Sequence record: OR352941.1
DNA: 64,000 nucleotides
Source: Escherichia phage AV111
Strand: one strand, 5' to 3'
Part shown: piece by piece, positions 14,702-64,000 of the stretch
Layout of the letters: each line of letters begins with the position of its first letter
How positions within the stretch are numbered: position 1 is the stretch's first letter
Translations under genes and position numbers: made by a program
Notes under the pieces: generated by a model
What the model was told of the DNA's origin: nothing
The model's input: the letters and a program-made list of their open reading frames with translations, nothing else
Database searches by the model: none

Positions 14702-15226
14702 TCATTTTAGCAAAATAAAATCAACTTGTTCTGCCAATGAACGTCTAAACATTAATTGACATCTTCCGAGGATGAAATCAGGTGCTTCATAGACCGCTAT
14801 GTAGTATCCTTTGGCTTTCAGGAGTTCAACATCCACCTGGTCATCAAACCATGCATAAACCGCGACAACACTTTCAAATCCAAAATAGAACTCTTGAGCC
14901 CAATCTTCGTTCAATTCAAATGTGTGCTCAACTCTATAGTATCTTAAGATATTTTGTTCAAGGAGTTTGTCTTCATTTACTGTAGGACGATTAGGGACAT
15001 TATAGTTGTCGCCGTGATGGTAGAAGTTACCTGAGAGTATTCCATGCTTATCAAGGAACTCCCATGTTTCTTCAGAGTTGTCGGTGCCTGACCAACCGTA
15101 CGGCGAGCGAGGTTCTTTATTCCAAGAGGTTTCCCAAATTCTGACGGCTTTACCATCTTCGATAGCAATTCCTGGTAATGATTCACGTTGAGTACAAAAA
15201 CTACGTTCTACGCGGTAAACTAACAT
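14702..15226 (-). CDS. hypothetical protein (174 aa)
   Basis: ATG start; promoter and RBS upstream. Confidence 0.55.
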   Translation of the reverse strand: MLVYRVERSFCTQRESLPGIAIEDGKAVRIWETSWNKEPRSPYGWSGTDNSEETWEFLDKHGILSGNFYHHGDNYNVPNRPTVNEDKLLEQNILRYYRVEHTFELNEDWAQEFYFGFESVVAVYAWFDDQVDVELLKAKGYYIAVYEAPDFILGRCQLMFRRSLAEQVDFILLK

Positions 15227-15285: not shown

Positions 15286-15705
15286 TTATGCAAAAGATGC
15301 TGGACAATATTTTTTGATTTGGAACTCAGGAACTACCATGAACTGTCCAGCGAAAACGATGTTATAAAGCTTAACACCATCTTCTACCCATTGGTCCGAA
15401 ATAAAACCAGCAACTTGATTCGTTGTCCACGGTGTTCCATCTGTTGCCGCAGCAATGGTGAACTCGTGGTCTTTTACAACTAAAACCGATCTGCACAGTT
15501 TCCATTTGAACGCGCGTTCTTCTGGCTCGATGAATTGGCTTTTAACGTAACCAATGTTACCATCAGCGTCACGAACTTTAACTTCGTTACGTCCAAAAAC
15601 CGGATCACTCACAGAAAGAACTTCGACCAACTTACCAGCAACTTTAGAGCGAGAAGCATCTGATACGTGTACATAATCACCAATAGAGAGATTTGCAATA
15701 TTCAT
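15286..15705 (-). CDS. hypothetical protein, DQW(V/I)EDG paralog family member A (139 aa)
   Basis: shares N-terminal and C-terminal motifs with the next two genes. Confidence 0.6.
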   Translation of the reverse strand: MNIANLSIGDYVHVSDASRSKVAGKLVEVLSVSDPVFGRNEVKVRDADGNIGYVKSQFIEPEERAFKWKLCRSVLVVKDHEFTIAAATDGTPWTTNQVAGFISDQWVEDGVKLYNIVFAGQFMVVPEFQIKKYCPASFA

Positions 15706-15714
15706 AATAATTCC

Positions 15715-16212
15715 TTAAGCTTTACGAGGAGACACATAGCGAGTGATTTCAGATTCTTCAACAACTCGGAAGTCACCTAAGAATACAATATTGTATAACT
15801 TTTTACCATCTTCAACCCATTGGTCACTAATGAAGCCGCACATAGTATCAGTTTTGCTTGGATAACCGTATTCGTCGATGTAATCAAATTCTTTATCGGT
15901 TATAAATTCAACGCCTTTGCAAAGGGCCCATTTGAACTGTGTAGTAGGCTCAACGATATCGTTTGAAGCAAAGTGTGCAGGTGCAACTTCTTCGCTTGAA
16001 GCAAATTGGACTCGTATATGTTTTTCCAGGAATTTAGGACTTACGTAAGCATACTGGGCATCTTGTCCGCCAAAACTCGGGATGATTCGAACTTTAACTT
16101 CTTTAACACGTCCCATGCCATTAGTACGAAGCCCTGCTACTTCAACCAGACGACCTGCAGCTTTAGAACGAGAAGCAGGAGATACACGAAGGATTTCACC
16201 AATAGTAATCAT
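15715..16212 (-). CDS. hypothetical protein, paralog family member B (165 aa)
   Basis: start moved to ATG at 16212 (MITIGEILRV...) by alignment with paralog A. Confidence 0.6.
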   Translation of the reverse strand: MITIGEILRVSPASRSKAAGRLVEVAGLRTNGMGRVKEVKVRIIPSFGGQDAQYAYVSPKFLEKHIRVQFASSEEVAPAHFASNDIVEPTTQFKWALCKGVEFITDKEFDYIDEYGYPSKTDTMCGFISDQWVEDGKKLYNIVFLGDFRVVEESEITRYVSPRKA

Positions 16213-16242
16213 AATTTCTCTCTCTTTGTTTAAATTGAATTC

Positions 16243-16271
16243 ACTATACTCCATCCATCCTTGGATGTACA
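16243..16271 (-). promoter_or_regulatory. promoter (-35 TGTACA, 17 nt, -10 TATAGT) with spacer palindrome CATCCA-TCCT-TGGATG
   Basis: read from sequence. Confidence 0.5.
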
Positions 16272-16274
16272 ACA

Positions 16275-16769
16275 TTAATTAAGGATATTAACCACAGCAC
16301 TACGTGGAACTACACTAAAATCACCTGCATGAACAACGTTCAGAAGTTCAACGCCGTCTTCAATCCATTGGTCAGTTACCCATCCACTCACTGGTCCTGC
16401 GAACGGACGTCGAATTGAAACAGCTTTACACAACAAATCAGTAGGCTCAATAGGCTTAATCAGAGTACCGTACATACAAGCGATATCCATATCAAAGTGG
16501 AGACCATCTTTAACAGGTGCTTCTTCAATCAACAGTTCAAAGTCTGTGCTTGGAAGGGCGGTAGTAGAAATTGTACCGTATGAATTTTTAATTTCTAAGA
16601 ATAACCAAGGGCCTTCCGTTTGTTTGATGAAGTTAACAATAGTGAAACTATTACCTTGAGTGGCACCTAAAATTTCACAAAACTTTTCATAAGCTCGCAC
16701 TGAAGCACCATACCAGTTAATTTGTTTTTCGTCTTTCAGGATGTAAGTAGCCGTAGTATTGATATTCAT
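16275..16769 (-). CDS. hypothetical protein, paralog family member C (164 aa)
   Basis: C-terminal GWVTDQWIEDG...AGDFSVV motif shared with A and B. Confidence 0.6.
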   Translation of the reverse strand: MNINTTATYILKDEKQINWYGASVRAYEKFCEILGATQGNSFTIVNFIKQTEGPWLFLEIKNSYGTISTTALPSTDFELLIEEAPVKDGLHFDMDIACMYGTLIKPIEPTDLLCKAVSIRRPFAGPVSGWVTDQWIEDGVELLNVVHAGDFSVVPRSAVVNILN

Positions 16770-16800
16770 AATGTTTTTCCTGTTTAGTTAAGATAAAAAG

Positions 16801-16830
16801 ATTATACTACAACCAAGGATGGTTGTAAAC
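16801..16830 (-). promoter_or_regulatory. promoter (-35 GTTTAC, 18 nt, -10 TATAAT) with spacer palindrome CAACCA-AGGA-TGGTTG
   Basis: read from sequence. Confidence 0.55.
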
Positions 16831-16835
16831 TGGTT

Positions 16836-17513
16836 TTATCGCTGTTTTACACTTAACGGGTCAGGATTCTCAGGGACATCTTCAAGGCCAAGCGCATAAC
16901 GCTGAGCATATTTTAACATCAAAATATCTTTAGCACAATCATGAATACTATCATGGGCAACGAATCCTTTTAGCGTACCCATCGGTAATGGACACATACT
17001 TAATCCTCGTGTCAACGAGTAAGCTTCGATTGCCGTACGAATATCACGTTGAGCCCAGAATTTAACCGGTTCTAATTTATCAGTATCAATATCTGGTTCA
17101 AGAACACCTTCATCACGATAGAGGTCACGAATCAAATCGACCAAGATCGGGAAGTCAAAGCTCATACCACGGCACCACATCTGTGATTTCCATTGGTCAA
17201 CTTTATTAGCTCGACAATAATCTAAAAAGATTTTAATGCCTTCAAGCGTAGTGACATCGTCTTCAGACGGGGCCAAGTTTTTACGTGCTTCTGCTGATTG
17301 TTCTTTCCACCATTTCATAGTGGATTTAGCGAAAACTCGCTTCCCTTTCTGAGAAGCTAAATTAAATTTAATTCGCTTACCTCGTTGAACAAGTTCTTCA
17401 AATGATTCAACAACTTCAGGGTCGGAATTATATGCAATAACCGCAAGGTCAATAACAGCCGCTTTTGATGTATTGCCGAATGTTTCAAAATCTATAATAA
17501 CATCAGTGCTCAT
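16836..17513 (-). CDS. dexA: exonuclease A (DEDD 3'-5' exonuclease)
   Basis: 225 aa; IIDFETFG motif; synteny with dda. Confidence 0.85.
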   Translation of the reverse strand: MSTDVIIDFETFGNTSKAAVIDLAVIAYNSDPEVVESFEELVQRGKRIKFNLASQKGKRVFAKSTMKWWKEQSAEARKNLAPSEDDVTTLEGIKIFLDYCRANKVDQWKSQMWCRGMSFDFPILVDLIRDLYRDEGVLEPDIDTDKLEPVKFWAQRDIRTAIEAYSLTRGLSMCPLPMGTLKGFVAHDSIHDCAKDILMLKYAQRYALGLEDVPENPDPLSVKQR

Positions 17514-17522
17514 AATTTTCTC

Positions 17523-18836
17523 TCAAATAAAATGGACGTCAAAACGACCACGAGTCGTGCCGACATATAGTAATTGTTTGGCTAATTCTGAATCGGCATA
17601 ATGGATACACGGTGTATAAACAAAGGCCGTGTCAACAGATATACCCTGGGCCTTATGGAAGGTTGATACAGGTAGTGCCTTCACCTTAGTGAACATGCGT
17701 TTAGCATCCCAGAATTCGCTCCATGGAGCTTTACCGCCTTTATTCCAGAATTTGTATGTTTCTGCGGTCTTAGCCAAAAACAAATTGAATTTATAAAGCT
17801 CTTCTTCAGAAGAAATAACCTTTATATCCTCTCGGACGTATTCCTCATCATCACCATATGTTTCTACTGTAAGATTCCAGTATCGTATCATATATTCGCC
17901 TGAAACACCACGTGCTTTAACGAATGTAGACGTTTCTACAGCATCTCGAATACGAACGAATTGCCCATTATTGAAAAGCATTTCGGTCATATTTTTACCG
18001 TCTAGCTTATATGTCTTAGTAAATGGCTCTTGTAGAACAATGACTTCGTCTTTAATAAATGGTTTTTCTGTTTCAAGAAGTTTTCGGCGAATAATTGAAT
18101 TTAACTTGTCCACCGACTTATTTGTGAATGCCATCATTCGATTTTCGAAAAGGTCTTCAGGAGTTTTAACGACGTTAAAATAGTTCATCATATACGATTT
18201 AAGGTCTGTATATCCATGAACGCCGTGCCCATCAACTACTTTATCGTAAATCCATTTGCCATTACGAATATCAGTCGCAACATCAATAATTGGTGCATTG
18301 CTACGTTTAACTTCTGTAAGGTTGCATTGCACGAAGTCTTTGTGAGTGAAGAAAGGACTTAGATACGCAGTTGATTCGCCTGGGTCTACCGGACGAATCT
18401 GGCATCGGTCGCCGATTCCAATTACTGTACACCATTTAGGGATACTAGCTAACATTATTTTAAACAGAGAACGGTCGCACATTGACGCTTCATCAAATAA
18501 CAGTACACGACACAAGGCTAAGTCGGGAACCTTTTTCTGTTCAAACAATACGTTTTCTTCGTATGTAGTTGGGTTGATTTTAAGAATGCTATGAATAGTC
18601 GATGCTTCTTGACCCGCAAGTTTGCTTAGAACCTTTTTAGCGGCATGTGTAGGGGCTGCTAAAATAATACCTGATTCTCCTGAAGAAATAAGAGCTTCAA
18701 CAATAAATCTAGTAAGGGTTGTTTTACCTGTACCAGCCGGTCCATTAATAGTTACATGATGTTTCTTTTCTTTAATAGCTTCCATAACAACGTTGAAGGC
18801 GTTTTTCTGGCCTTCAGTCAAATCATCAAATGTCAT
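17523..18836 (-). CDS. dda: Dda DNA helicase (SF1)
   Basis: 437 aa; Walker A GPAGTGKTT; length and synteny match T4 Dda. Confidence 0.9.
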   Translation of the reverse strand: MTFDDLTEGQKNAFNVVMEAIKEKKHHVTINGPAGTGKTTLTRFIVEALISSGESGIILAAPTHAAKKVLSKLAGQEASTIHSILKINPTTYEENVLFEQKKVPDLALCRVLLFDEASMCDRSLFKIMLASIPKWCTVIGIGDRCQIRPVDPGESTAYLSPFFTHKDFVQCNLTEVKRSNAPIIDVATDIRNGKWIYDKVVDGHGVHGYTDLKSYMMNYFNVVKTPEDLFENRMMAFTNKSVDKLNSIIRRKLLETEKPFIKDEVIVLQEPFTKTYKLDGKNMTEMLFNNGQFVRIRDAVETSTFVKARGVSGEYMIRYWNLTVETYGDDEEYVREDIKVISSEEELYKFNLFLAKTAETYKFWNKGGKAPWSEFWDAKRMFTKVKALPVSTFHKAQGISVDTAFVYTPCIHYADSELAKQLLYVGTTRGRFDVHFI

Positions 18837-28841: not shown

Positions 28842-28870
28842 ATAATAACACAACTACTGGAGAAGTAAAC
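28842..28870 (-). promoter_or_regulatory. early promoter (-35 GTTTAC, 17 nt, -10 TATTAT) inside a 14-bp inverted repeat that pairs the spacer with the RBS
   Basis: TTCTCCAGTAGTTG/CAACTACTGGAGAA perfect repeat spanning 28820..28864. Confidence 0.55.
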
Positions 28871-38985: not shown

Positions 38986-41697
38986 TCAAAAATCGAACAT
39001 ATCGAACAGAGATGCTTTCTTCTCATAATCGAGTTTCGCTGCTGATGTGAATCCTTCAAGTGGTTTAATAAATGTCTTCTCAAGGAGAACAGTGTAGTCC
39101 ATCCAATGAAGTACATCGTCTTTAATTAAATCTGTGATTTCAGTACCAGAAGGCCATGCGATACATTTATCACCGAATGGGTTTCCTTCACGTAAAGGCA
39201 GAACATATACTTTTTCACCTTCTACAACTTGCGGCGCATCAATATTACCTTTGATAGCTCGGTTATATGTCAGAATTCCACGAATATGGAACGGGCATTT
39301 GGGGCCAGGGAATCCACCGACATCATATTTAGCAATGTTATTCGCAGAAGATACCGACGCGATGCTAATATAATTCAATTGACGGAATTCTTTTTCAAAC
39401 TCTTTAAAATATTCTTGTAATGATTCTTCACCTTCTTGAAGCATACGACGAATACATTCTTTAAGAGCTTTCTGTACTGCTTTAGGGGTCGAAGATTTCT
39501 GAGTCTCTAGACCCATGATTTTGAGTTTAGGCTCAGCGTAACGAGTGCCTTCCATATCCCACACGTTTAATGCATAACGTTTCTTACCAGTCCAGAATCC
39601 ACCAATACCTTTAGAACCGAGCGGAGGGCCAGCAATAGCTTCTCGGTCCATGAACATCAAATGTTGCTTATTATTCATGTATTCACACATTTCACGGAAA
39701 CCTCTATCAATAGCTGGTTCCATACGTTCACGTGCAAACTTATCTAAGAAGTCTACCCAATGGTTGGTATCACGGAATTTAGATTCACCAACCTTATCAA
39801 TAATTTTATCTGCAGATACGTAAATGGAGTCTGTATCACCATATAGAACGAAAGCTTCGCCTTCTGTACCACAAACTTCATTCAGATATTCATTAACTTT
39901 ACGTTCAATCCACTGTAAAGCCATTTGCCCAAATGTTGTGATTGCAGTTGCATTACGCAAATCGTAATAACGGAACCAAACGTTTCCAAGTGCACCATAA
40001 AGTGAGTTGATAAGCAATTTACGGTTAATCTGTGCAGTCATACCTGCAACTTCAGTACGTTGAGCTCTAAACAACATTTCATTAAGAGATTTAGCAGACA
40101 ACTTTTTAATCTTTTCTTTAATCTCATCACTGAAGTCGAAACGATAATCAACATCTAATGGTTCGTCAACAGAAAGATTAGGATTATGCAATGCCTCTTT
40201 AATTATTTCGCCATTACGTTGAGCTGCAAGCATGTAACCTTTATGTTCTTTACGTTGATTAAAGACCTTAGTGATTTCAGTTGGAACTACACCATCACGG
40301 TCTTTATAATACATCATGCCGTTAGGAGAGCAACTGTACACATCTGAAGGACGTTCAGCGATTGCGTTAATATAATCATGCAGTGGAGCTACTTTAAACG
40401 TTCCTGCTATTGTTTCAGGGCTAATATTCACTTGGCGAATAATACTTGGATACAGAGATGTAAGGTCGAAACTCATTACATATTTGTATCGATTTGGAAT
40501 AGGTTCCTTAACAAAAGCGCCAGGATAAGGTTGAACCGGGTGAGAACGACCTTGTGGAATCACCTTGTTCTGCTCTTTAAGGCTATTAAAAATAATAGCA
40601 TCCCATGTTTTAATTGGACTGAACACAGATTGAATCTGAATTTTAGCATAATAACCCATGTCCAAGCTCAAGTTAATGAACTGGCGTTTAGCATCAATTT
40701 GCAATACACGATATACGTCGATAATGTTATAAGAAATATATCGTTGGTGATTGCTTTCACGAAGCTTAGAAATAGGGCCGTCATATTTCAGTTTACCAAC
40801 GTTCAATTCAAATTCTGAAATGTAATCCAGAGAATACGACGGTTGGTTCGTGAAAGAGAACTTTTTGTAAAGGTCAATGTAATCAAGAACAGAGATACCG
40901 AACAATGTAATGATTTCACGAGAACCATACATGTTTTCGATAACTTTAACACGAGTTTTACGATGTGGTGATAAACGTTTCGCAGTAGATTCGCCAAAAA
41001 TATTCTTGATTCGGTTATACACATATGGAATATCAAATGACTCAACGTTCCATCCAGTCAAAATGACAGGAGTTTTCTGTTGCCAGAAGTTGAGATATTC
41101 CATCAACAATTCTTTTTCGTTATCGAACGGCATATAAATGATTTTATCGATAATTTCGGATGGAACTTCATCACCGCCTTGTTCTTGAAGCTTAGCAGCG
41201 ATTTCAATAGACCATTCTTCTACATTACCATATGGAGAATTCAATAGATCAAATACGTAGAACCTGTCGTCAATTGAGTCATAATGGGTGATAGCATCAA
41301 TCGGATGTTTTGCTTGTGACGGCTCAGGGAACCCATCCGGAGATGTTACTTCGATGTCGAAGTTAGCCACACGAATTTTTGTATGGTCGTATTTGATTTC
41401 ATAGTTATAAGTGTCAGACAAATACGCCAATTTGAAATCGTCCATGCCAAGTGCTTCAAGTCCGATATCTTCCATGCGTTTAATCCATTGAGACGCATCG
41501 CGCATATTAGCGAACAACTTACGAGTACACGGCTTACCGTAGATATCGAAATATTTCGTAGCCTGACTTTCTGGACAATGAGCAAACAGTGATGGTTTAT
41601 ATTCTACTTCACGAGTACGTTCACGGCCATTAGAATCGATGTAACGTTCAAAAATTGAATCACCAATCTGTTCAACCGTTAAGTAAAATTCTTTCAT
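38986..41697 (-). CDS. 43: DNA polymerase gp43 (family B), RB69-type
   Basis: 903 aa; N-terminus MKEFYLTVEQIGDSIFERYID and C-terminus LFDMFDF match the RB69 polymerase as recalled. Confidence 0.97.
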   Translation of the reverse strand: MKEFYLTVEQIGDSIFERYIDSNGRERTREVEYKPSLFAHCPESQATKYFDIYGKPCTRKLFANMRDASQWIKRMEDIGLEALGMDDFKLAYLSDTYNYEIKYDHTKIRVANFDIEVTSPDGFPEPSQAKHPIDAITHYDSIDDRFYVFDLLNSPYGNVEEWSIEIAAKLQEQGGDEVPSEIIDKIIYMPFDNEKELLMEYLNFWQQKTPVILTGWNVESFDIPYVYNRIKNIFGESTAKRLSPHRKTRVKVIENMYGSREIITLFGISVLDYIDLYKKFSFTNQPSYSLDYISEFELNVGKLKYDGPISKLRESNHQRYISYNIIDVYRVLQIDAKRQFINLSLDMGYYAKIQIQSVFSPIKTWDAIIFNSLKEQNKVIPQGRSHPVQPYPGAFVKEPIPNRYKYVMSFDLTSLYPSIIRQVNISPETIAGTFKVAPLHDYINAIAERPSDVYSCSPNGMMYYKDRDGVVPTEITKVFNQRKEHKGYMLAAQRNGEIIKEALHNPNLSVDEPLDVDYRFDFSDEIKEKIKKLSAKSLNEMLFRAQRTEVAGMTAQINRKLLINSLYGALGNVWFRYYDLRNATAITTFGQMALQWIERKVNEYLNEVCGTEGEAFVLYGDTDSIYVSADKIIDKVGESKFRDTNHWVDFLDKFARERMEPAIDRGFREMCEYMNNKQHLMFMDREAIAGPPLGSKGIGGFWTGKKRYALNVWDMEGTRYAEPKLKIMGLETQKSSTPKAVQKALKECIRRMLQEGEESLQEYFKEFEKEFRQLNYISIASVSSANNIAKYDVGGFPGPKCPFHIRGILTYNRAIKGNIDAPQVVEGEKVYVLPLREGNPFGDKCIAWPSGTEITDLIKDDVLHWMDYTVLLEKTFIKPLEGFTSAAKLDYEKKASLFDMFDF

Positions 41698-59050: not shown

Positions 59051-59347
59051 TTATTGTTCTACCCATGAACAAGAGACTTCAAAATCAGGACCACCGTATT
59101 CCCAGTGATATTCACCAACAGGAATCCAGTCACCGTGCTCGTTTTCTTCATAGTCCTCAGGCTCAAGGCCAACGAATCGCCATTGGACACCGATGATTCG
59201 ATTACCCATCATTACTCGAAATTCGCCCCATGGATTATCGATAGCATACTGAATATCGTTCTTGGCACGAGAGCACATTTCTTGATATAATAAAGCTTCT
59301 AATTCACCCTGGTCATAAGGGCCAGGGAAAGTTAAATCAATACTCAT
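59051..59347 (-). CDS. hypothetical protein (98 aa)
   Basis: ORF in track. Confidence 0.5.
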   Translation of the reverse strand: MSIDLTFPGPYDQGELEALLYQEMCSRAKNDIQYAIDNPWGEFRVMMGNRIIGVQWRFVGLEPEDYEENEHGDWIPVGEYHWEYGGPDFEVSCSWVEQ

Positions 59348-59607
59348 TTAAAATATTCTCGCAGTTGATCAAATCCGCCAATGTGACTTCCGTCAGGAGC
59401 AAACACTTGAGGCATAGTCAATCCAACTTGTGATTCACGTCCAAGCTTAACCAGAAGCTCAGTAATTTTCTCATCATCGAACACACCTTTTTCTGGCATA
59501 ACATTAATGAATTCGAATGGCTGTTTCTTAACAGTCAGCAATCGTTTCGCATTATCACAATAAATGCATTTATGAATAGTAGAGTCATAACCGTACACTT
59601 TAAACAT
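59344..59607 (-). CDS. nrdC: thioredoxin/glutaredoxin NrdC
   Basis: ATG at 59607 with AAAGGA RBS; MFKVYGYDSTIHKCIYCDNAKRLL matches T4 NrdC as recalled. Confidence 0.9.
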   Translation of the reverse strand: MFKVYGYDSTIHKCIYCDNAKRLLTVKKQPFEFINVMPEKGVFDDEKITELLVKLGRESQVGLTMPQVFAPDGSHIGGFDQLREYFK

Positions 59608-60013
59608 TATTTTTCCTTTCATCGATTAAATATGCAACACCAAATACAATACATGTAATAAAACCTGTGATACCGATAGAGAACATCAACACTGTACCAA
59701 AGAACCAAATCAAGTTATCTTTGGTAGTTTGTTTGATATCCATCTCACGAATTTCTATAGCTATCGTATCACCTTTATTCAGAAGCGTATAAAACGATGG
59801 CGATACACGCCTGTCAAAAACTCGTCCTTGTTCATCTTTATAAACTGCAATAAATTCCAGTTTAGAATATTTTCCTGTAGATTGGCCTGAGATTAATTCT
59901 ACTACCTCCACAGGAATTACTTTAGTTTCCATGTAAGTATTCTGGCTGTTCCAAATGAATGGAATGATGGCAAAAACTAAAGCTGCAATAAAACAACGAA
60001 GGCTATATCTCAT
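59600..60013 (-). CDS. membrane protein (137 aa)
   Basis: two hydrophobic segments. Confidence 0.5.
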   Translation of the reverse strand: MRYSLRCFIAALVFAIIPFIWNSQNTYMETKVIPVEVVELISGQSTGKYSKLEFIAVYKDEQGRVFDRRVSPSFYTLLNKGDTIAIEIREMDIKQTTKDNLIWFFGTVLMFSIGITGFITCIVFGVAYLIDERKNNV

Positions 60014-60318
60014 TATAATGTTCTCTCAAATTTGTGGAAGCATTTACGGCATTTCAATTTCAAGTTATCAGTGGTCCAGTTAACCAGTTGGACTTGGATA
60101 GTTCCACATTCCGGGCATGGATGTTTTGCTGCCGATTTGGCAGCATTTTCACGTCGTTCAACCATTTTCATTATTTCGTTCCATGCCGGAGGAACGAACT
60201 CTTCTTCACCGTGGATTTTATCTCGCTGAACAAATTCAATCTTTGAACTATCGTCAATAAACTTAACCAAGCCATGATTAGTGCTCATATCAATATCCTC
60301 TAAAAGACGTAGTTTCAT
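60013..60318 (-). CDS. zinc-ribbon protein (101 aa)
   Basis: CPECG...CRKC cysteine pairs. Confidence 0.5.
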   Translation of the reverse strand: MKLRLLEDIDMSTNHGLVKFIDDSSKIEFVQRDKIHGEEEFVPPAWNEIMKMVERRENAAKSAAKHPCPECGTIQVQLVNWTTDNLKLKCRKCFHKFERTL

Positions 60319-61268
60319 TATAACACCTCAATGGCATTTCGTAAACCGTCCGCTTTCGCATTCAGAGCTTTTAACGATTTAGTTTGTTCTGCAATCTGGG
60401 CTTCGACTTCTTTCAGACGAGATTTGAGGTACTCACGTTCTTCGCTCAAGTTGTCAACTTTTTCTACTTTAGGTTCTTTAATAGTCTTAAGTTTATACTC
60501 GTTAGGGTTCTTCAACTTAATTCGGGTACGAGAACTATATAACATTGAACCGTTATCTTCGGATTCGTCGAACGTTTCAACAACATCCATAGTCTCTAAC
60601 AATGTAATAAGTTTATAAGACAACGAACGAATAGTTTTGTTGTGCTTATTAATTTCTTCGGCTTTCATAGTACCGAGATTACGTGAGTAGTAATAAGGAA
60701 CCTGGATATCAATTGACAATGATGCGTTACCATTACCAGTTGGTTTGAATACTGCAGTAACCCAATCTTTAACATGAACTTTATTTGTACGGCCATCACC
60801 GCCAGTGAATAATTTACGAGAATGTTTAAAAAGCATATTCACTTGTTTATTGAATTCACAAGCAAATTTATCAGCAAATTTAGTTTCAGGAATGGTAGAT
60901 AACCAATCAGCCAAATGAGTCTTTTTAACATCATTAACAATAGTGAATTCAACCAAATCGGTTTTAGATGTCACAGATTTAATAAAGCTCGGTTTCATAA
61001 AGTTTTTAATGTTATCGCGAGCTACAGTAGAAGATAATAAACGAGAACGTTTGAACCATTGAAGCAGCGTCCCTAGTGAATGAGAATATGCATTTTGAGT
61101 ATCTTTACAGATATGATTTTCTTGGCCTGTGTATGTACCAAAATCGCGAAGAATACCACTTACTACATCTCGGTGTGGAACATCAAATCCTAGTGCACCA
61201 ACAGCGCGCTGGGCACGAACGTTAGCGATAAGACCGGCAAAGTATTCAATGTAATGTGAACGTGTCAT
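60318..61268 (-). CDS. hypothetical protein with C-terminal coiled coil (316 aa)
   Basis: ORF in track; own promoter carrying the shared palindrome. Confidence 0.5.
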   Translation of the reverse strand: MTRSHYIEYFAGLIANVRAQRAVGALGFDVPHRDVVSGILRDFGTYTGQENHICKDTQNAYSHSLGTLLQWFKRSRLLSSTVARDNIKNFMKPSFIKSVTSKTDLVEFTIVNDVKKTHLADWLSTIPETKFADKFACEFNKQVNMLFKHSRKLFTGGDGRTNKVHVKDWVTAVFKPTGNGNASLSIDIQVPYYYSRNLGTMKAEEINKHNKTIRSLSYKLITLLETMDVVETFDESEDNGSMLYSSRTRIKLKNPNEYKLKTIKEPKVEKVDNLSEEREYLKSRLKEVEAQIAEQTKSLKALNAKADGLRNAIEVL

Positions 61269-61296
61269 AATATTTTCCTCTCGTTAAGATAGATTC

Positions 61297-61326
61297 ATTA
61301 TACTCCAACCATCCTTGGTTGTAAAC
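61297..61326 (-). promoter_or_regulatory. promoter (-35 GTTTAC, 18 nt, -10 TATAAT) with spacer palindrome CAACCA-TCCT-TGGTTG
   Basis: read from sequence. Confidence 0.55.
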
Positions 61327-61330
61327 CGTT

Positions 61331-62287
61331 TTATGATTTTAATGCATTCATTGCGTTAAAAAGTTTAGAATACTGCAACTGGAGATTCGTTACAACACTT
61401 TGAGCATCACGAAGCTTAGCTTGTGCTTTGTCAAGTTCAACGGACAGTTGGTCTACAGTAGCCTTGATTTGGTTGTAATAATAATCTTCGGCCGGAAGAA
61501 GGTCATTAGAAACATTTAGTTTTACTGCCGACAGTTTGCACACATTTGGCAAACCTTTAAACATATCGGGTTGTGCCGGAGAATATGCGCTTAGAACCTC
61601 TGCATTACCGACTGGTGTTGCTGTGATATTGCCTTCGAACGTTGCATTTTCCTTTTTAAGATTTTGATAGTATTCAGAGTCTTTGTGCCACCATGGCGCA
61701 GGAACCTTTTTACCAATAGATACACGAGCCTGGATAGCGATATGGCCCTTATTCTTGATAATGTCGATAATATTAAGCTCACGAGAATAAATCGCTTTAA
61801 TCTGGTGGATATTATCACCTAAAACTTCCAACGCTTGGTGGAATACACGAGCAACGTTATCATTCTTAGGTTTATACGTAAGAGTGAACTCATTCTCACT
61901 GATAACCATGATTTCCAACTTATCGTAAGTATATTTCAAATGTTTCATGTTAATTGCTTGAGGACGAATACGAGAAGCAATGGCCATCAAATTGTTAAGG
62001 TTATTTCTGAACTGTTTAGCAAAATATTGTCCGGTGCCGCCGATACAAAAATTACGAAGTTTCTGTTTGGCTAATAAACGGCTGAACTCACCATTTTTAA
62101 TGAACTCTTTAACGGGTGTGTTGGTAACGCATTCAAATTGAGTAAACTTACGAGAAGTAATCCCATAATATGAACAGATTTCCTCAATCTCTTCAGGAGT
62201 CTTTACAGGCATACGGATAGGATTAGGTCCTGGAGTATATGCGTTCGAGGTAAATTCTTTAATAAGTTCTCTACGTGTAATAGCCAT
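61331..62287 (-). CDS. hypothetical protein with C-terminal coiled coil (318 aa)
   Basis: ORF in track; own promoter carrying the shared palindrome. Confidence 0.5.
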   Translation of the reverse strand: MAITRRELIKEFTSNAYTPGPNPIRMPVKTPEEIEEICSYYGITSRKFTQFECVTNTPVKEFIKNGEFSRLLAKQKLRNFCIGGTGQYFAKQFRNNLNNLMAIASRIRPQAINMKHLKYTYDKLEIMVISENEFTLTYKPKNDNVARVFHQALEVLGDNIHQIKAIYSRELNIIDIIKNKGHIAIQARVSIGKKVPAPWWHKDSEYYQNLKKENATFEGNITATPVGNAEVLSAYSPAQPDMFKGLPNVCKLSAVKLNVSNDLLPAEDYYYNQIKATVDQLSVELDKAQAKLRDAQSVVTNLQLQYSKLFNAMNALKS

Positions 62288-62313
62288 TTTATATTCCTCA
62301 TGTTGAAAAATTT

Positions 62314-62342
62314 ATTATACTCCAACCATCCTTGGTTGTACA
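62314..62342 (-). promoter_or_regulatory. promoter (-35 TGTACA, 17 nt, -10 TATAAT) with the same spacer palindrome CAACCATCCTTGGTTG
   Basis: read from sequence. Confidence 0.55.
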
Positions 62343-63338
62343 TCATTCCTTAAGAAGTTTTACTACCTGAATAAGATTAGCTCGTTCTGTTTTATTTTTA
62401 CCGTTTAAGCCTGCTAATCGTGAGATTTCATCGTCAGTCTGCTGAATAGTTACATTAAGTTCGTTAATCAAAGCTTCAAAGTATTTGATTTGCTCAGCAT
62501 GTTTTGATTCAAATTTCTGAACCGGAATAACGTCTTGGTTTAGTTCATCAATAAGGTCTTTAAGAGCATCTTCTTGGTTGATATCATATTCAACTTCTTT
62601 TATTTCTTCAACGAGCTCGTCTTTATATCTAACGTCTTTTAGTCCTGGTGCGGGTCCCGAAATCTCTTCTTTAAGAGTACAAACATATCCAATACGATAT
62701 CCAATGCCATCTCGCTTGATATCAACTTCGTCGATAAATCCACAATGTTTAAGTCCAGAGCCGATTATGTCAAAATATCCTTGACGTCGCCCTTCAAACG
62801 TTACACGAACTACTAAGACGGTTTTACCTGCAACCTTTTGAAGCTCACATTTATAAAAGTCAGTTGAACCTGAATAACGTGGATGAGTTTTAAAGTTCAT
62901 CTGACGATCTAGGCCCATTTGTAAACGTGCTGATACAGCCAGAAAACGTGTTTGGTTCTCGTTAAGATGAGCAACAATCTGTTTCAAAGGCATTTTACCC
63001 TGTTCACGACCGAACAAATCGGTACGTCCTAAATTACGCAGGATATTGTTAGAGTTAATCATCGACAGAACGTTAAGTTTATTCAGCGCGCTGAAGATTC
63101 CATCAGCCATTGATTTTCCATAACCTTTACACGCTTTAATAAGTGCTCGCGGCAGATTAGTATAAATTTCAGACGGCATATGAAAATCAAATTTTCTAAC
63201 CAATAATTGATGAACTTGGATAGCAATTTGCTCATAATTAAGTGCTCTGCGATCGTTATGGTCTTTAAACCACACTTTAATCTGTGAAGCACATAAACCG
63301 TTAATTTCATGTTTTACCGCATCAGATGTAATGCTCAT
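62343..63338 (-). CDS. hypothetical protein with C-terminal coiled coil (331 aa)
   Basis: ORF in track. Confidence 0.5.
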   Translation of the reverse strand: MSITSDAVKHEINGLCASQIKVWFKDHNDRRALNYEQIAIQVHQLLVRKFDFHMPSEIYTNLPRALIKACKGYGKSMADGIFSALNKLNVLSMINSNNILRNLGRTDLFGREQGKMPLKQIVAHLNENQTRFLAVSARLQMGLDRQMNFKTHPRYSGSTDFYKCELQKVAGKTVLVVRVTFEGRRQGYFDIIGSGLKHCGFIDEVDIKRDGIGYRIGYVCTLKEEISGPAPGLKDVRYKDELVEEIKEVEYDINQEDALKDLIDELNQDVIPVQKFESKHAEQIKYFEALINELNVTIQQTDDEISRLAGLNGKNKTERANLIQVVKLLKE

Positions 63339-63373
63339 AACTATTTCCTCAGATTGAATTGGAACTCAAAACC

Positions 63374-63397
63374 ATTATAACCCGTCCTTGGGTAAAG
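63374..63397 (-). promoter_or_regulatory. TATAAT -10 preceded by degenerate palindrome ACCC-AAGGAC-GGGT; no clear -35
   Basis: read from sequence. Confidence 0.35.
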
Positions 63398-63400
63398 CGT

Positions 63401-63928
63401 TTATGCGTGAACCGTCTTTAAACGTTCTTCAAATTTCCGAAGAGTACTAATACGTTCTGCTTTCTGTTTTGTATAGTTTGCAATACGTTCTGAAGTGAGA
63501 GCGTATCGTTCGTTTACTGTTTCTTTCATGAAGTCAGGGATTTCACGAGAAGCTTTAATTTCATCAAACTTATCGAGTACCGCCTGGTCTTCAGCGATTA
63601 AATTTTCGTACATCTCGATATCTTTCTTGATAAACTCGATATCTTCCTGGGTTACTTTGGATAAACGAGATGCTTTATCCTTTTTGTACTGATCGTTAGT
63701 TTCACGAGACCAGAATAATGTACGTTTTTTGTTAGTGTTTTTGTAGACTTCCACAATTCCAACTGAATCGATGATAGCAATCCAATTCCAGCGAGATTTG
63801 AAAATCTGACCTCCGTCCACGGTAATCTCGTTACCATAAGCAATGTCATTAAAGAACTTACTTTGTGCTTCAGATTTAAATTTACCGTCGTTATAATTTA
63901 CCAGGTTGAAAATATCTTTAGCGTTCAT
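63401..63928 (-). CDS. hypothetical protein (175 aa)
   Basis: ATG start, GGAGG RBS. Confidence 0.5.
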   Translation of the reverse strand: MNAKDIFNLVNYNDGKFKSEAQSKFFNDIAYGNEITVDGGQIFKSRWNWIAIIDSVGIVEVYKNTNKKRTLFWSRETNDQYKKDKASRLSKVTQEDIEFIKKDIEMYENLIAEDQAVLDKFDEIKASREIPDFMKETVNERYALTSERIANYTKQKAERISTLRKFEERLKTVHA

Positions 63929-63955
63929 GTTTTACCTCCAGTAGTTGATAGGTCT

Positions 63956-63984
63956 ATAATAACATAACCATAGACCTTGTAAAC
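63956..63984 (-). promoter_or_regulatory. early promoter (-35 GTTTAC, 17 nt, TGnTATTAT) with AGGTCTAT/ATAGACCT repeat
   Basis: read from sequence. Confidence 0.5.
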
Positions 63985-64000
63985 AACTAAAAGAAACTTT

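Follow-up and report, generated by a model that had tools for sequence, protein, structure and literature searches.

Why does one short palindrome recur in the promoter spacers of several genes of a T4-type phage, and would it act there as double-stranded DNA or as a folded single strand? We examined a window of 64,000 nucleotides of Escherichia phage AV111 (OR352941.1), an RB69-like T4-type phage (Mosigvirus); a 3-kb query around the finding showed 98.4% identity between the window and Mosigvirus PhAPEC2. We conclude that the five sites carrying the palindrome are copies of the PeSL (promoter-early stem-loop) cassette type of T4-type phages. In the full explanation, which we consider probable, the hairpin of these PeSL copies would act as a single strand on read-through RNA, and the identity between cassettes would feed recombination.

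A hairpin family in intergenic promoter cassettes

The exact 16-mer CAACCATCCTTGGTTG occurs on the plus strand at 61306-61321 and 62323-62338, and its reverse complement lies at 16810-16825. A variant with two, doubly compensated mismatches, CATCCATCCTTGGATG, occupies 16252-16267, and a short variant, ACCCGTCCTTGGGT, is located at 63380-63393, directly 5' of a TATAAT at 63379-63374 on the minus strand. Allowing up to three mismatches, the window contains four matches to CAACCATCCTTGGTTG versus 0.44 expected, and none of 100 shuffles of the window reached four. The 10-nt core CCA-AGGA-(T/C)GG was found at the five sites and nowhere else in the window, so that the motif search proposed as a check by an earlier sequence-only reading confined the core to these promoter sites. 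Likewise, a covariance model built from the hairpin family retrieved the same five window sites and no others at E<0.01. A looser scan for 6-pair hairpins with an AGGA loop gave five in the window versus 1.2 expected, a count that shuffles also reached and that is not significant alone. Rfam returned no match at gathering thresholds in the whole window, and near the finding two chance snoRNA-like matches with E>3. In IMG/VR, the exact 16-mer was present in 26 stretches, roughly chance level by our own rough estimate, and only four of these (L007, L009, L010, and L017, from three Mosigvirus contigs) showed promoter context; an exact 16-mer scan of this kind is useless for judging the breadth of the motif.

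All five copies are inside intergenic promoter cassettes of 55-66 nt, on the gene (minus) strand. As in other PeSLs, cassette elements take up the gaps between early genes wholly, in the order upstream stop codon, -35 box, stem-loop, -10 box, Shine-Dalgarno (SD) sequence, and start codon. Four copies sit in the 17-nt spacer of minus-strand promoters of the form T(T/G)TACA-N17-TATA(A/G)T (62342-62314, 61325-61297, 16829-16801, and 16271-16243), which match 9 to 11 of 12 promoter consensus positions and whose RB69 equivalents are within early promoters predicted in 2006.

Two of these cassettes belong to the nrdC.x cluster, where the palindrome had been placed, correctly, between the -35 box and the -10 box of the promoters for the genes starting at 62287 and 61268. 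The first cassette (62288..62342, minus strand) fills the gap between the genes for the NrdC.6-like and the NrdC.5-like (RB69p097) protein, and its RB69 equivalent is inside the predicted Pe:52042. It comprises a -35 box TGTACA (62342-62337), a -10 box TATAAT (62319-62314), an SD sequence GAGGAA, and the ATG at 62287; the hairpin CAACCA-AGGA-TGGTTG (sense strand; 62323..62338) scores 31.1 bits with the covariance model and is followed by GGAG. The second cassette (61269..61330, minus strand; RB69 equivalent inside Pe:51019), in the gap between the NrdC.5-like and NrdC.3 genes, combines TTTACA (61325-61320), TATAAT (61302-61297), an SD sequence AGAGGAA, and the ATG at 61268, with the same hairpin sequence in its spacer (61306..61321), again followed by GGAG. 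The 62342 promoter serves the gene of the RB69p097/DUF7235 protein (61331..62287, minus strand; 318 aa), a distant NrdC.5 homolog (25% identity over 311 aa, E 4e-11), and the 61325 promoter serves that of the NrdC.3 ortholog (60318..61268, minus strand; 316 aa; 56% identity to T4 NrdC.3).

The other two early-type cassettes belong to the dexA-motB cluster. One, in the gap between dexA and the gene of the first MotB-family paralog (16770..16835, minus strand; RB69 equivalent inside Pe:8947), has a -35 box TTTACA (16829-16824), a -10 box TATAAT (16806-16801), and a hairpin with an 8-bp stem, TACAACCA-TCCT-TGGTTGTA (16808..16827), which scores better with the covariance model on the plus strand; its description as the same stem with an inverted loop was confirmed. 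The other, which separates the genes of the first MotB-family paralog and of the MotB homolog (16213..16274, minus strand; RB69 equivalent inside Pe:8387), has TGTACA (16271-16266), TATAGT (16248-16243), and the hairpin CATCCA-AGGA-TGGATG (16252..16267), followed by GGAG, in which an A-T to T-A exchange is compensated, as had been noted. The "DQW family" of the sequence-only reading is the MotB family (Pfam PF17613). The genes that it listed are indeed those of two MotB-family paralogs, namely, a 164-aa protein (16275..16769, minus strand; RB69 annotates part of the region as motB.1) and the 165-aa MotB homolog beginning MITIGE (15715..16212, minus strand), and of three NrdC.3, NrdC.5-like, and NrdC.6-like proteins of about 320 aa; the start served by the 16271 promoter is at 16212, not 16275. 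BLASTP among the three ~320-aa proteins detected no pairwise similarity, and for this reason tandem duplication of gene and promoter was rejected as the source of the shared spacer in the nrdC cluster.

The fifth cassette (63339..63400, minus strand) lies in the gap between the NrdC.8-like and NrdC.6-like genes and serves the latter (62343..63338, minus strand; NrdC.6 homolog, 331 aa). A degenerate copy of the palindrome had been reported just before the TATAAT of this gene, and the position stands; its assignment to an early-promoter spacer does not, since TTTACC is just 11 nt from TATAAT and there is no usable -35 box. To judge from its sequence, the site reads better as a putative MotA-box-like CGCTTTA (63399-63393), 13 nt, and TATAAT (63379-63374) than as an early promoter. 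The short hairpin ACCC-AAGGAC-GGGT (63380..63393; 23.2 bits) abuts the -10 box. The same arrangement was found 5' of nrdC.7 in T4 and of nrdC.6 in JS98, VR20, and IME08, and the site is absent from the RB69 lists of early and middle promoters.

The term PeSL comes from Krisch's group and, in the parts of their work drawn on here, stands for a recombining cassette made up of a promoter and a stem-loop (Arbiol et al. 2010, PMC2839356; Comeau et al. 2014, PMC4122927); the stem-loop is described there as lying mostly between the -35 box and the -10 box or over the latter (PMC2839356, PMC4122927). In the window, four promoters are sigma-70-like and the fifth, with its MotA-box-like element, resembles the published "PmSL" variant. 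The hairpin is part of the minimum-energy fold at five of five sites and is supported by covariation, and the five copies are repeated across the dexA-motB and nrdC.x clusters. Fold z-scores of the intergenic RNAs are weak (-0.7 to -2.75, and +0.95 at the fifth site). A further 10 or so early promoters of the window have an inverted repeat that extends across the -10 box, the other common PeSL subclass; those at 28869, 15280, and 63983 embed the SD sequence in a hairpin, which only read-through RNA can fold.

Folded strand or double-stranded operator

The sequence-only reading took the shared palindrome to suggest a co-regulated gene set; on this view, the palindrome would be the operator of a dimeric phage or host DNA-binding regulator that switches this subset of promoters together. 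At each copy the site overlaps the RNA polymerase footprint, it is repeated and strongly non-random, and the mechanism of T4 early-promoter shut-off is described in the literature as not fully understood. No candidate regulator is known.

An operator and a hairpin would be expected to differ in which part of the element varies. Our comparison took in 13 different variants, drawn from Mosig-, Dhaka-, Gapriver-, and Tequatrovirus, which are not phylogenetically independent. In these 13 variants, 84.6% of the pairing cells were paired versus 66.9% in shuffles, and none of 500 shuffles scored as high. Five hairpin pairs have changed on both sides; at the pair formed by columns 5-16, AU, UA, CG, and GC were all seen, with no unpaired case, and sliding the partner by 1-3 columns lowered pairing to 22-42%. 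The A-AGGA loop and the closing C-G pairs, on the other hand, are invariant or nearly so across the four genera, and the last loop base is T, C, or A, never G. The arms are thus the variable part, changing with compensation, and the asymmetric center AAGGA(Y) is the constant part, the reverse of what a dimer operator would be expected to show. The distance to the promoter varies as well: by our own count from the sequences, the AGGA loop is located at about -26/-23 in the early cassettes of the window, at about -22/-19 in T4 nrdC.4, and at about -19/-16 in the MotA type, and the upstream element that accompanies the hairpin is of the early type in some cassettes and of the MotA type in others.

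Because the arms covary, the asymmetric center is constant, and the register varies, we favor a hairpin acting as a single strand over a dimer operator. Conserved symmetric half-sites are lacking, as half-site positions vary and one pair takes all four forms, and there is no fixed position relative to the promoter elements, the register to the -10 box shifting by 4-7 bp between cassette types. Furthermore, cytosines in T-even DNA are glucosyl-hydroxymethylated, which hinders major-groove reading of a C/G-rich site. We therefore regard the operator as very improbable and do not retain the idea of a set co-regulated through a shared DNA-binding factor: arms vary around a constant asymmetric center, three registers occur, and the set is wider than five genes. 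Co-expression of the five genes probably goes no further than the ordinary sharing of early promoters by four of them. G-U wobble pairs were considered as a sign of sense-strand RNA, and this argument was dropped because sense A-C mismatches are about as frequent as sense G-U pairs.

Exchange between cassettes and a flipped loop

At the DNA level, the identity of about 30-60 nt between copies may provide a substrate for recombination and gene conversion, and conversion would keep cassette copies alike while shuffling the accessory genes that they flank. Recombination, a defining property of PeSLs, was seen here through comparative evidence alone. The RB69 nrdC.3 cassette and the RB69 cassette downstream of dexA match for about 50 nt, which sets the former apart from its orthologs in the window, PhAPEC2, and OLB35; as far as such comparison can tell, these two RB69 cassettes show gene conversion. 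In other genera, the same cassette variants precede unrelated genes (nrdC.4, nrdC.7, and a cef-like gene). T4 nrdC.4 is flanked by two cassettes, and the window, lacking nrdC.4, keeps one; similarly, the place directly downstream of the MotA-type cassette is occupied by nrdC.7 in some genomes and not in others. The complete relative phiEC1 has eight credible copies in promoter context and a ninth that is missing from the window. A further phiEC1 site at 39765, with GCCAAGGACGGC after the -10 box, was dropped from the family, as it is not conserved in the 38988 region of the window. Related-locus searches gave two loci with the p097 protein and eight with the NrdC.8 protein; the dexA query gave 52, with PeSLs of other types at that position in most genera.

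The copy at 16810-16825 is an exact flip of the four loop bases relative to every relative examined, and none of 50,697 records searched carries it. EP32a shares the promoter and the hairpin arms but has an AGGA loop, and the AGGA orientation is kept in all Mosigvirus records that aligned full-length. A G-to-T change that lengthens the stem is found in EP32a and the window. Through the flip, the sense loop has become UCCU and the loop GGA is lost at the 16829 cassette.

This raises the question of whether the hairpin has any function of its own. Its copies could be alike by descent and gene conversion, and the arms could be kept by templated (quasi-palindrome) mutation. The exact loop flip and the stem-lengthening G-to-T change are what template switching typically produces, RB69 shows gene conversion, and the hairpins are thermodynamically modest; palindromy can persist without selection through templated mutation in single-stranded DNA, and the flip shows that such events occur here. 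Yet across four genera conservation is higher in the loop than in the stem, and the hairpin persists in three promoter registers; one loop orientation is kept at every other site examined even though flips evidently occur, which suggests strand-specific selection. A hairpin without function is, in our judgment, unlikely. Regardless of function, the window and RB69 offer clean natural examples of cassettes that convert one another, flank gene gain and loss, and undergo hairpin-templated mutation.

Read-through RNA and comparison with known systems

If the hairpin acts as a single strand rather than as a double-stranded operator, it would do so on particular transcripts. Since it lies upstream of the start site of its cassette, it would be missing from the transcript of its own promoter and be present in RNA reading through from upstream promoters. 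No terminator-like site was found on the minus strand between cassettes at 59110-64000, and the literature yielded no usable T4 start-site or terminator maps. We infer that the hairpin matters on read-through RNA, as we do for what binds it there: it might mark or insulate the intercistronic junction by attenuation, by processing, or through a protein on the A-AGGA-Y loop. An intrinsic terminator is not apparent, the 5-8-bp stems being followed by GAGUAUAAU and no U-tract; only the 16829 site passed a loose terminator scan, and three of the five sites were not reported.

Processing could involve RegB, which cuts GGAG/U in intergenic regions of early mRNA and whose gene is widespread in T4 relatives, including RB69. 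The hairpin, its 3' GGAG, or both would then present a cleavage site, with GGA unpaired and the fourth base constrained, and the cut would separate the cistrons and leave a protective stem-loop at the end of the upstream mRNA. RegB alone is efficient on an unpaired GGA with a constrained fourth base; the loop holds GGAU or GGAC at four of the five window sites, and GGAG directly follows the stem at three window sites and, at the fourth, in all relatives. The sequence requirement (GGAG/U, early intergenic, unpaired GGA) is found at most copies. However, the family tolerates C or A after GGA, where RegB requires G or U, the fit of GGAGUAUAAU to the S1-dependent consensus GGAGRAYARAA is only partial, and the T4 nrdC.4-type and MotA-type cassettes lack the 3' GGAG. 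Secondary structure is also reported to protect from cleavage, so that RegB may act poorly on a site in or beside a stem. We consider a RegB site quite improbable.

It is more tempting, if still doubtful, to speculate that the hairpin binds host CsrA on read-through early transcripts, either with the dimer bridging to the GGA of the downstream SD sequence and silencing translation of the read-through RNA or with the many copies on abundant early RNA acting as a CsrA sponge, as CsrB does. The SELEX consensus of CsrA is RUACARGGAUGU, with ACA and GGA invariant; 51 of 55 ligands formed a short variable hairpin with GGA in its loop, and 44 of the loops had six nucleotides. RsmE binds ANGGAN hexaloops, and CsrB repeats read CAGGA(U/A/C)G. 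The phage hairpins have the form stem-[A A G G A Y/A]-stem, with constant A, GGA, and closing C-G, and this hairpin form required of CsrA sites is present at the window copies except the flipped one at 16810-16825. The T4 hairpin upstream of nrdC.4 contains ACAAGGAUGU exactly (10/10). E. coli CsrB carries ACACCA-GGA-TGGTGT, CTCCA-GGA-TGGAG, and TCAAGGATGA and holds the same CCAGGAUGG core, and phiEC1 has ACACCA-AGGA-TGGTG. A second GGA is located in the SD sequence 34-39 nt downstream of the loop GGA in the 62342, 61325, and 63396 cassettes. The constant AGGA orientation in the aligned Mosigvirus records fits this reading, ColE7 cel provides a precedent with an intercistronic hairpin plus SD sequence, and CsrB is unusually stable during T4 infection.

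Against CsrA, the window hairpins agree with the consensus at 9 of 12 positions, with CCA in place of the invariant ACA of SELEX, and their stems, at 5-8 bp, are longer than those of most SELEX hairpins (4 bp or fewer). The SD sequence of the 16271 cassette has no GGA, and the flipped hairpin of the 16829 cassette has none in its loop. AAGGA is also Shine-Dalgarno-like, and most SD sequences of T4-type phages contain GGA in any case. Hairpins with an AAGGAN hexaloop are only modestly enriched genome-wide (13 versus 5.1 expected in phiEC1, 8 versus 6.0 in a Tequatrovirus), and eight or nine sites per genome are few for a sponge. The literature searched contained no link between CsrA and early RNA of T4-type phages. 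On balance, we see it as a tentative proposal, drawn from sequence likeness, that CsrB-like hairpins in some early and middle promoter spacers of enterobacterial T4-type phages might recruit or titrate CsrA on read-through RNA. CsrA binding would refine, and does not contradict, the PeSL explanation. If true, it would imply either a CsrA sponge built into the phage or protein-mediated silencing of translation from accessory-gene copies on read-through RNA, and, with the conserved GGA loop as a CsrA site, at least one PeSL subclass would gain a concrete function for its stem-loops. For testing this idea, the flipped-loop copy is a ready natural mutant. The accessory genes concerned include a distant homolog of NrdC.5, which in T4 counters the Dsr1 defense (PMC9391042).

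As such, the finding extends the PeSL concept to RB69-like phages. With PeSLs as described in the sources cited above, the window cassettes share a sigma-70-type early promoter (TTTACW-N17-TAYWAT in T4/PST), a stem-loop between the -35 box and the -10 box, and many copies per genome that lie among accessory genes and are tied to gene insertion, deletion, and exchange. They differ in the phages concerned, as those sources describe PeSLs in RB49/phi1, T4/PST, and KVP40/nt-1 and not in RB69-like phages, and in their stems, those given there being poly-G/poly-C (RB49), AGNA...TCNT (PST/T4), or A3-4G3...C3T3-4 (nt-1); these descriptions do not mention a family in which the AAGGAY loop is constant and the arms covary. 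The RB49 stem-loop tested there terminated transcription, whereas the window stem is short and lacks a U-tract, and because of this the terminator role of the G/C-rich RB49 stem-loop may not apply here.

In T4, the genes e, soc, 49, and I-TevI have a ribosome-binding site that a hairpin masks in read-through early RNA and that becomes accessible when RNA starts from a promoter inside the hairpin. The window cassettes resemble these in having the promoter in or beside the hairpin, so that read-through RNA alone folds, but their hairpins exclude the SD sequence, and masking would need a bridging factor. MerR-type palindromic spacer operators likewise place an inverted repeat between the -35 box and the -10 box; the phage arms, in contrast, are not conserved, the conserved center is asymmetric, the spacer has the normal 17 nt, the register is variable, and there is no known regulator. 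To the CsrA/RsmE hairpins of CsrB/CsrC, the glgC leader, and ColE7 cel T1, the window hairpins are similar in their ANGGAN-type hexaloop, in the core CCA(A)GGAUGG, which two CsrB hairpins also have, in the second GGA within the SD sequence at three window sites, and in an intercistronic position as in cel; they differ in lying in a promoter spacer and in one extra A relative to the CsrB CAGGAUG repeats.

The shared palindrome and the genes behind it

The palindrome that the sequence-only reading had noticed in several promoters is real and non-random. CAACCATCCTTGGTTG is present in exact copies at 61306-61321 and 62323-62338; the copy at 16810-16825 is its reverse complement, and the one at 16252-16267 differs by two changes that compensate each other. 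These four matches at three or fewer mismatches compare with 0.44 expected, and none of 100 shuffles reached four. Each copy lies, as had been described, in the 17-nt spacer of a minus-strand T(T/G)TACA-N17-TATA(A/G)T promoter. At the fifth site, the proposed degenerate copy was found at 63380-63393, where a short version adjoins TATAAT, but the assumed ordinary promoter spacer was not, as only 11 nt separate TTTACC from TATAAT. A motif search of the whole window detected the 10-nt core CCA-AGGA-(T/C)GG at these five sites only, and a covariance model of the family returned the same five and no others at E<0.01 in the window.

Over the 3-kb stretch at 60500-63500, the window shares 98.4% identity with Escherichia phage vB_EcoM_PhAPEC2 and 96-97% with many further Mosigviruses, which are RB69-like T4-type phages. 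All genes near the five sites are on the minus strand; the landmarks are dda (17523-18836), dexA (16836-17513), and nrdC (59344-59622). The "DQW paralogs" proposed as one group of target genes indeed form a family, now identified as MotB by a match to Pfam PF17613. Three tandem members lie downstream of dexA, where ORFs span 14702-15226, 15286-15705, 15715-16212, and 16275-16769; they have in common the C-terminal block DQW(V/I)EDG, and T4 carries motB.2, motB.1, and motB at this position. The gene below the promoter with its -35 box at 16271 had been taken to start at about 16275, and its start is corrected here to the ATG at 16212 (MITIGE...). A mechanical ORF, 15715-16275, begins inside the promoter, and the cassette precedes the ATG. 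Across the equivalent RB69 promoter a separate 29-aa ORF, RB69ORF012c, is annotated, which is probably spurious.

The proteins of about 320 aa include an ortholog of NrdC.3 (56% identity to T4) and a homolog of NrdC.6 (30% identity); the RB69p097 (DUF7235) protein is a distant homolog of NrdC.5 (25% over 311 aa, E 4e-11). BLASTP of these three proteins against one another revealed no similarity. T4 NrdC.5 counters the Dsr1 defence (PMC9391042), and the genes around the nrdC.x cassettes are an accessory-gene cluster.

In the complete genome of the Mosigvirus phiEC1, the core is present nine times against about 0.65 expected, always on the early-gene strand. Eight of the nine copies stand in credible promoter contexts, three of these eight outside the region covered by the window; the ninth, which follows a -10 box at 39765, has no conserved counterpart in the window. 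A Tequatrovirus carries four copies. Nine and four copies imply a set that is larger than the five genes originally proposed and that differs by genus. A longer hairpin, AGTTTTCT-AAGGAT-GGAAAATT, with a stem of 7-8 bp and the AAGGAT loop of the cassette family, is kept outside the window in phiEC1 (record position ~70654) and in Tequatrovirus LF73P1 (~135662).

Hairpin or operator

For the operator of a dimeric protein one would expect half-sites that are conserved, a centre free to vary, and a constant position; the palindrome family fails all three. Its arms vary among relatives: upstream of nrdC.4, the hairpin is CATCC-AAGGAC-GGATG in JS98, CATCCA-AGGA-TGGATG in IME08, CTTCCA-AGGA-TGGAGG in VR20, and CCACA-AGGA-TGTGG in T4, which has AGCCA-AGGA-TGGCT upstream of nrdC.3. 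TACCA-AGGA-TGGTA, upstream of T4 nrdC.7 and of nrdC.6 in JS98, VR20, and IME08, follows a CGCTTTA box and overlaps the -10 box. In an unbiased listing of every CAAGGAYG in the collected loci of relatives, the arms were complementary in all copies beside a -10 box and lacked complementarity in copies within genes. Among 13 distinct variants, 84.6% of cells were paired, a level that none of 500 shuffles attained (66.9% in shuffles), and pairing fell to 22-42% when the partner column was slid. Five of the eight stem pairs showed two-sided changes, one of them occurring as AU, UA, CG, and GC with zero unpaired cases. The constant part is the asymmetric centre A-A-G-G-A with two closing C-G pairs, and the loop, as counted from the sequences, lies at about -26/-23, -22/-19, or -19/-16 from the start site, depending on the cassette type. 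Thus, the palindrome is very probably a hairpin rather than an operator, and the view of it as the mark of a co-regulated set is not supported.

Being upstream of the start site of its own promoter, the hairpin would be carried only by read-through RNA from upstream; a scan of 59110-64000 found no terminator-like sites on the minus strand between cassettes. A terminator role has been shown for a G/C-rich stem-loop of RB49. For the window hairpins such a role is doubtful, since their fold is weak (z-scores -0.7 to -2.75; +0.95 at the fifth site) and no U-tract follows the stem. The hairpin probably acts instead as a recognition or processing element at intercistronic junctions of read-through RNA and, at the DNA level, as a recombination substrate.

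Exchange between cassettes and a flipped loop

The RB69 nrdC.3 cassette equals the RB69 dexA-downstream cassette over about 50 nt (locus records L105, 50969-51019, and L106, 8897-8947), including positions that differ in the orthologs of the window, PhAPEC2, and OLB35; this is gene conversion between sites 42 kb apart. Mosigviruses have the CATCCA variant ahead of motB, and IME08 has it ahead of nrdC.4. In another genus, the T4 nrdC.4 variant stands before a cef-like gene; this variant occurs in 704 phage records, among them phages of Klebsiella, Enterobacter, Serratia, and Yersinia. The order is cassette-nrdC.4-cassette-nrdC.3 in T4, cassette-nrdC.3 only in the window, and cassette-nrdC.4 only in JS98, and nrdC.7 directly past the MotA-type cassette is present in some phages and absent in others. 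Taken together, the RB69 identity, the variants before differing genes, and the variable presence of nrdC.4 and nrdC.7 indicate that the cassettes recombine.

The dexA-downstream cassette reads TTTACAACCAAGGATGGTTGTAGTATAAT in EP32a and TTTACAACCATCCTTGGTTGTAGTATAAT in the window. As the sequence-only reading had recognized, the loop is inverted: its four bases are swapped for their reverse complement (AGGA to TCCT), with promoter and hairpin arms otherwise the same as in EP32a. A G-to-T change common to both lengthens the stem to 8 bp. The 81-nt flipped site matched none of the 50,697 records searched at >=95% identity, and all full-length record matches to the flipped 30-mer were 26/30, that is, unflipped; the flipped loop is unique to AV111 among these records. 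The flip has the hallmarks of a hairpin-templated change in single-stranded DNA and would be either a real mutation of that kind or an assembly artefact. At all other sites examined, the loop keeps one direction. Considering that flips evidently occur, yet the other sites retain a single orientation, the loop appears to be under strand-specific constraint.

Candidate readers and relation to PeSL cassettes

It is conceivable, albeit rather unlikely, that the conserved loop is a CsrA site on read-through RNA. The conserved part of the phage hairpin agrees with the way CsrA recognizes its targets. SELEX gave the CsrA consensus RUACARGGAUGU; the ligands carried GGA in a hairpin loop, the hairpins being short and variable, and 44 of the loops were six nt long. 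RsmE targets have ANGGAN loops, and CsrB repeats read CAGGA(U/A/C)G. The phage loop, A-A-G-G-A-(U/C/A), varies exactly where CsrB varies, and ACAAGGAUGU lies within the T4 nrdC.4 hairpin. Escherichia coli CsrB carries ACACCA-GGA-TGGTGT and CTCCA-GGA-TGGAG, the former with a phiEC1 counterpart, ACACCA-AGGA-TGGTG. Of the five window sites, three have a second GGA 34-39 nt off in the downstream Shine-Dalgarno sequence, resembling the hairpin-plus-Shine-Dalgarno arrangement of glgC and ColE7 cel. However, the window copies fit the consensus at 9 of 12 positions, the phage stems exceed those of typical ligands in length, AAGGA resembles a Shine-Dalgarno sequence as well, and generic hairpin enrichment genome-wide is modest. 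A literature search found no paper linking CsrA with T4-type early RNA. The likeness merits a gel shift. RegB, which cuts GGAG/U and works well on unpaired GGA, would be an alternative, less likely reader of the hairpin; GGAG comes after most stems, but the C and A variants past GGA do not fit, and RNA secondary structure reportedly gives protection from RegB.

Hairpin-bearing promoters of T4-type phages were described as PeSL (promoter-early stem-loop) cassettes by Arbiol et al. 2010 (PMC2839356) and Comeau et al. 2014 (PMC4122927). Early-promoter predictions of 2006 for RB69 cover the equivalents of our four early-type sites (Pe:8387, Pe:8947, Pe:51019, and Pe:52042); the MotA-type site is absent from both the early and the middle published RB69 lists. 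This fifth site, on the minus strand at 63374-63399 upstream of the NrdC.6-like gene, comprises a MotA-box-like CGCTTTA, 13 nt, and TATAAT, and judged by these elements reads better as a middle-type than as an early-type promoter. The same arrangement precedes T4 nrdC.7 and nrdC.6 of JS98, VR20, and IME08, and the element is possibly an unlisted middle promoter.

About 10 early promoters of the window belong to the other common PeSL subclass, where the pairing partner of the spacer lies immediately past the -10 box. Minus-strand examples are 28869-28842, 15280-15253, 63983-63956, 5273-5245, 27351-27323, 14701-14673, 51993-51965, 4500-4472, and 52418-52390; in most other early-type promoters of the window an inverted repeat pairs the 3' spacer half with bases after the -10 box. 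Three of these stems, at 28869, 15280, and 63983, are 10-12 bp long and extend as far as the Shine-Dalgarno sequence (e.g., CTCCAGTAGTTG...CAACTACTGGAG); the ribosome-binding site would be hidden in read-through RNA and exposed in RNA from the local promoter. An "agacctatcaa" or "ctatcaa" block recurs directly past the -10 hexamer of many early promoters, near the expected start site (minus strand, e.g., 63955-63945, 28841-28831, 14672-14662, and 2162-2152); these promoters serve unrelated genes. In three dexA loci (L070, L071, and L073) from T4-type phages that are more distantly related, about 30-60 nt past dexA, the -35 TTTACA lies in a hairpin loop followed by a T-run (aaaGAGGTttacaAGACCTCtttt), a terminator and promoter on shared bases that we read as another PeSL layout.

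The published PeSL order is the stop codon of the preceding gene within AT-rich sequence, a sigma-70-type early promoter, a stem-loop, a Shine-Dalgarno sequence, and ATG. All five window sites match this description feature by feature; they are PeSL cassettes with the stem-loop in the spacer and an unusually conserved loop.
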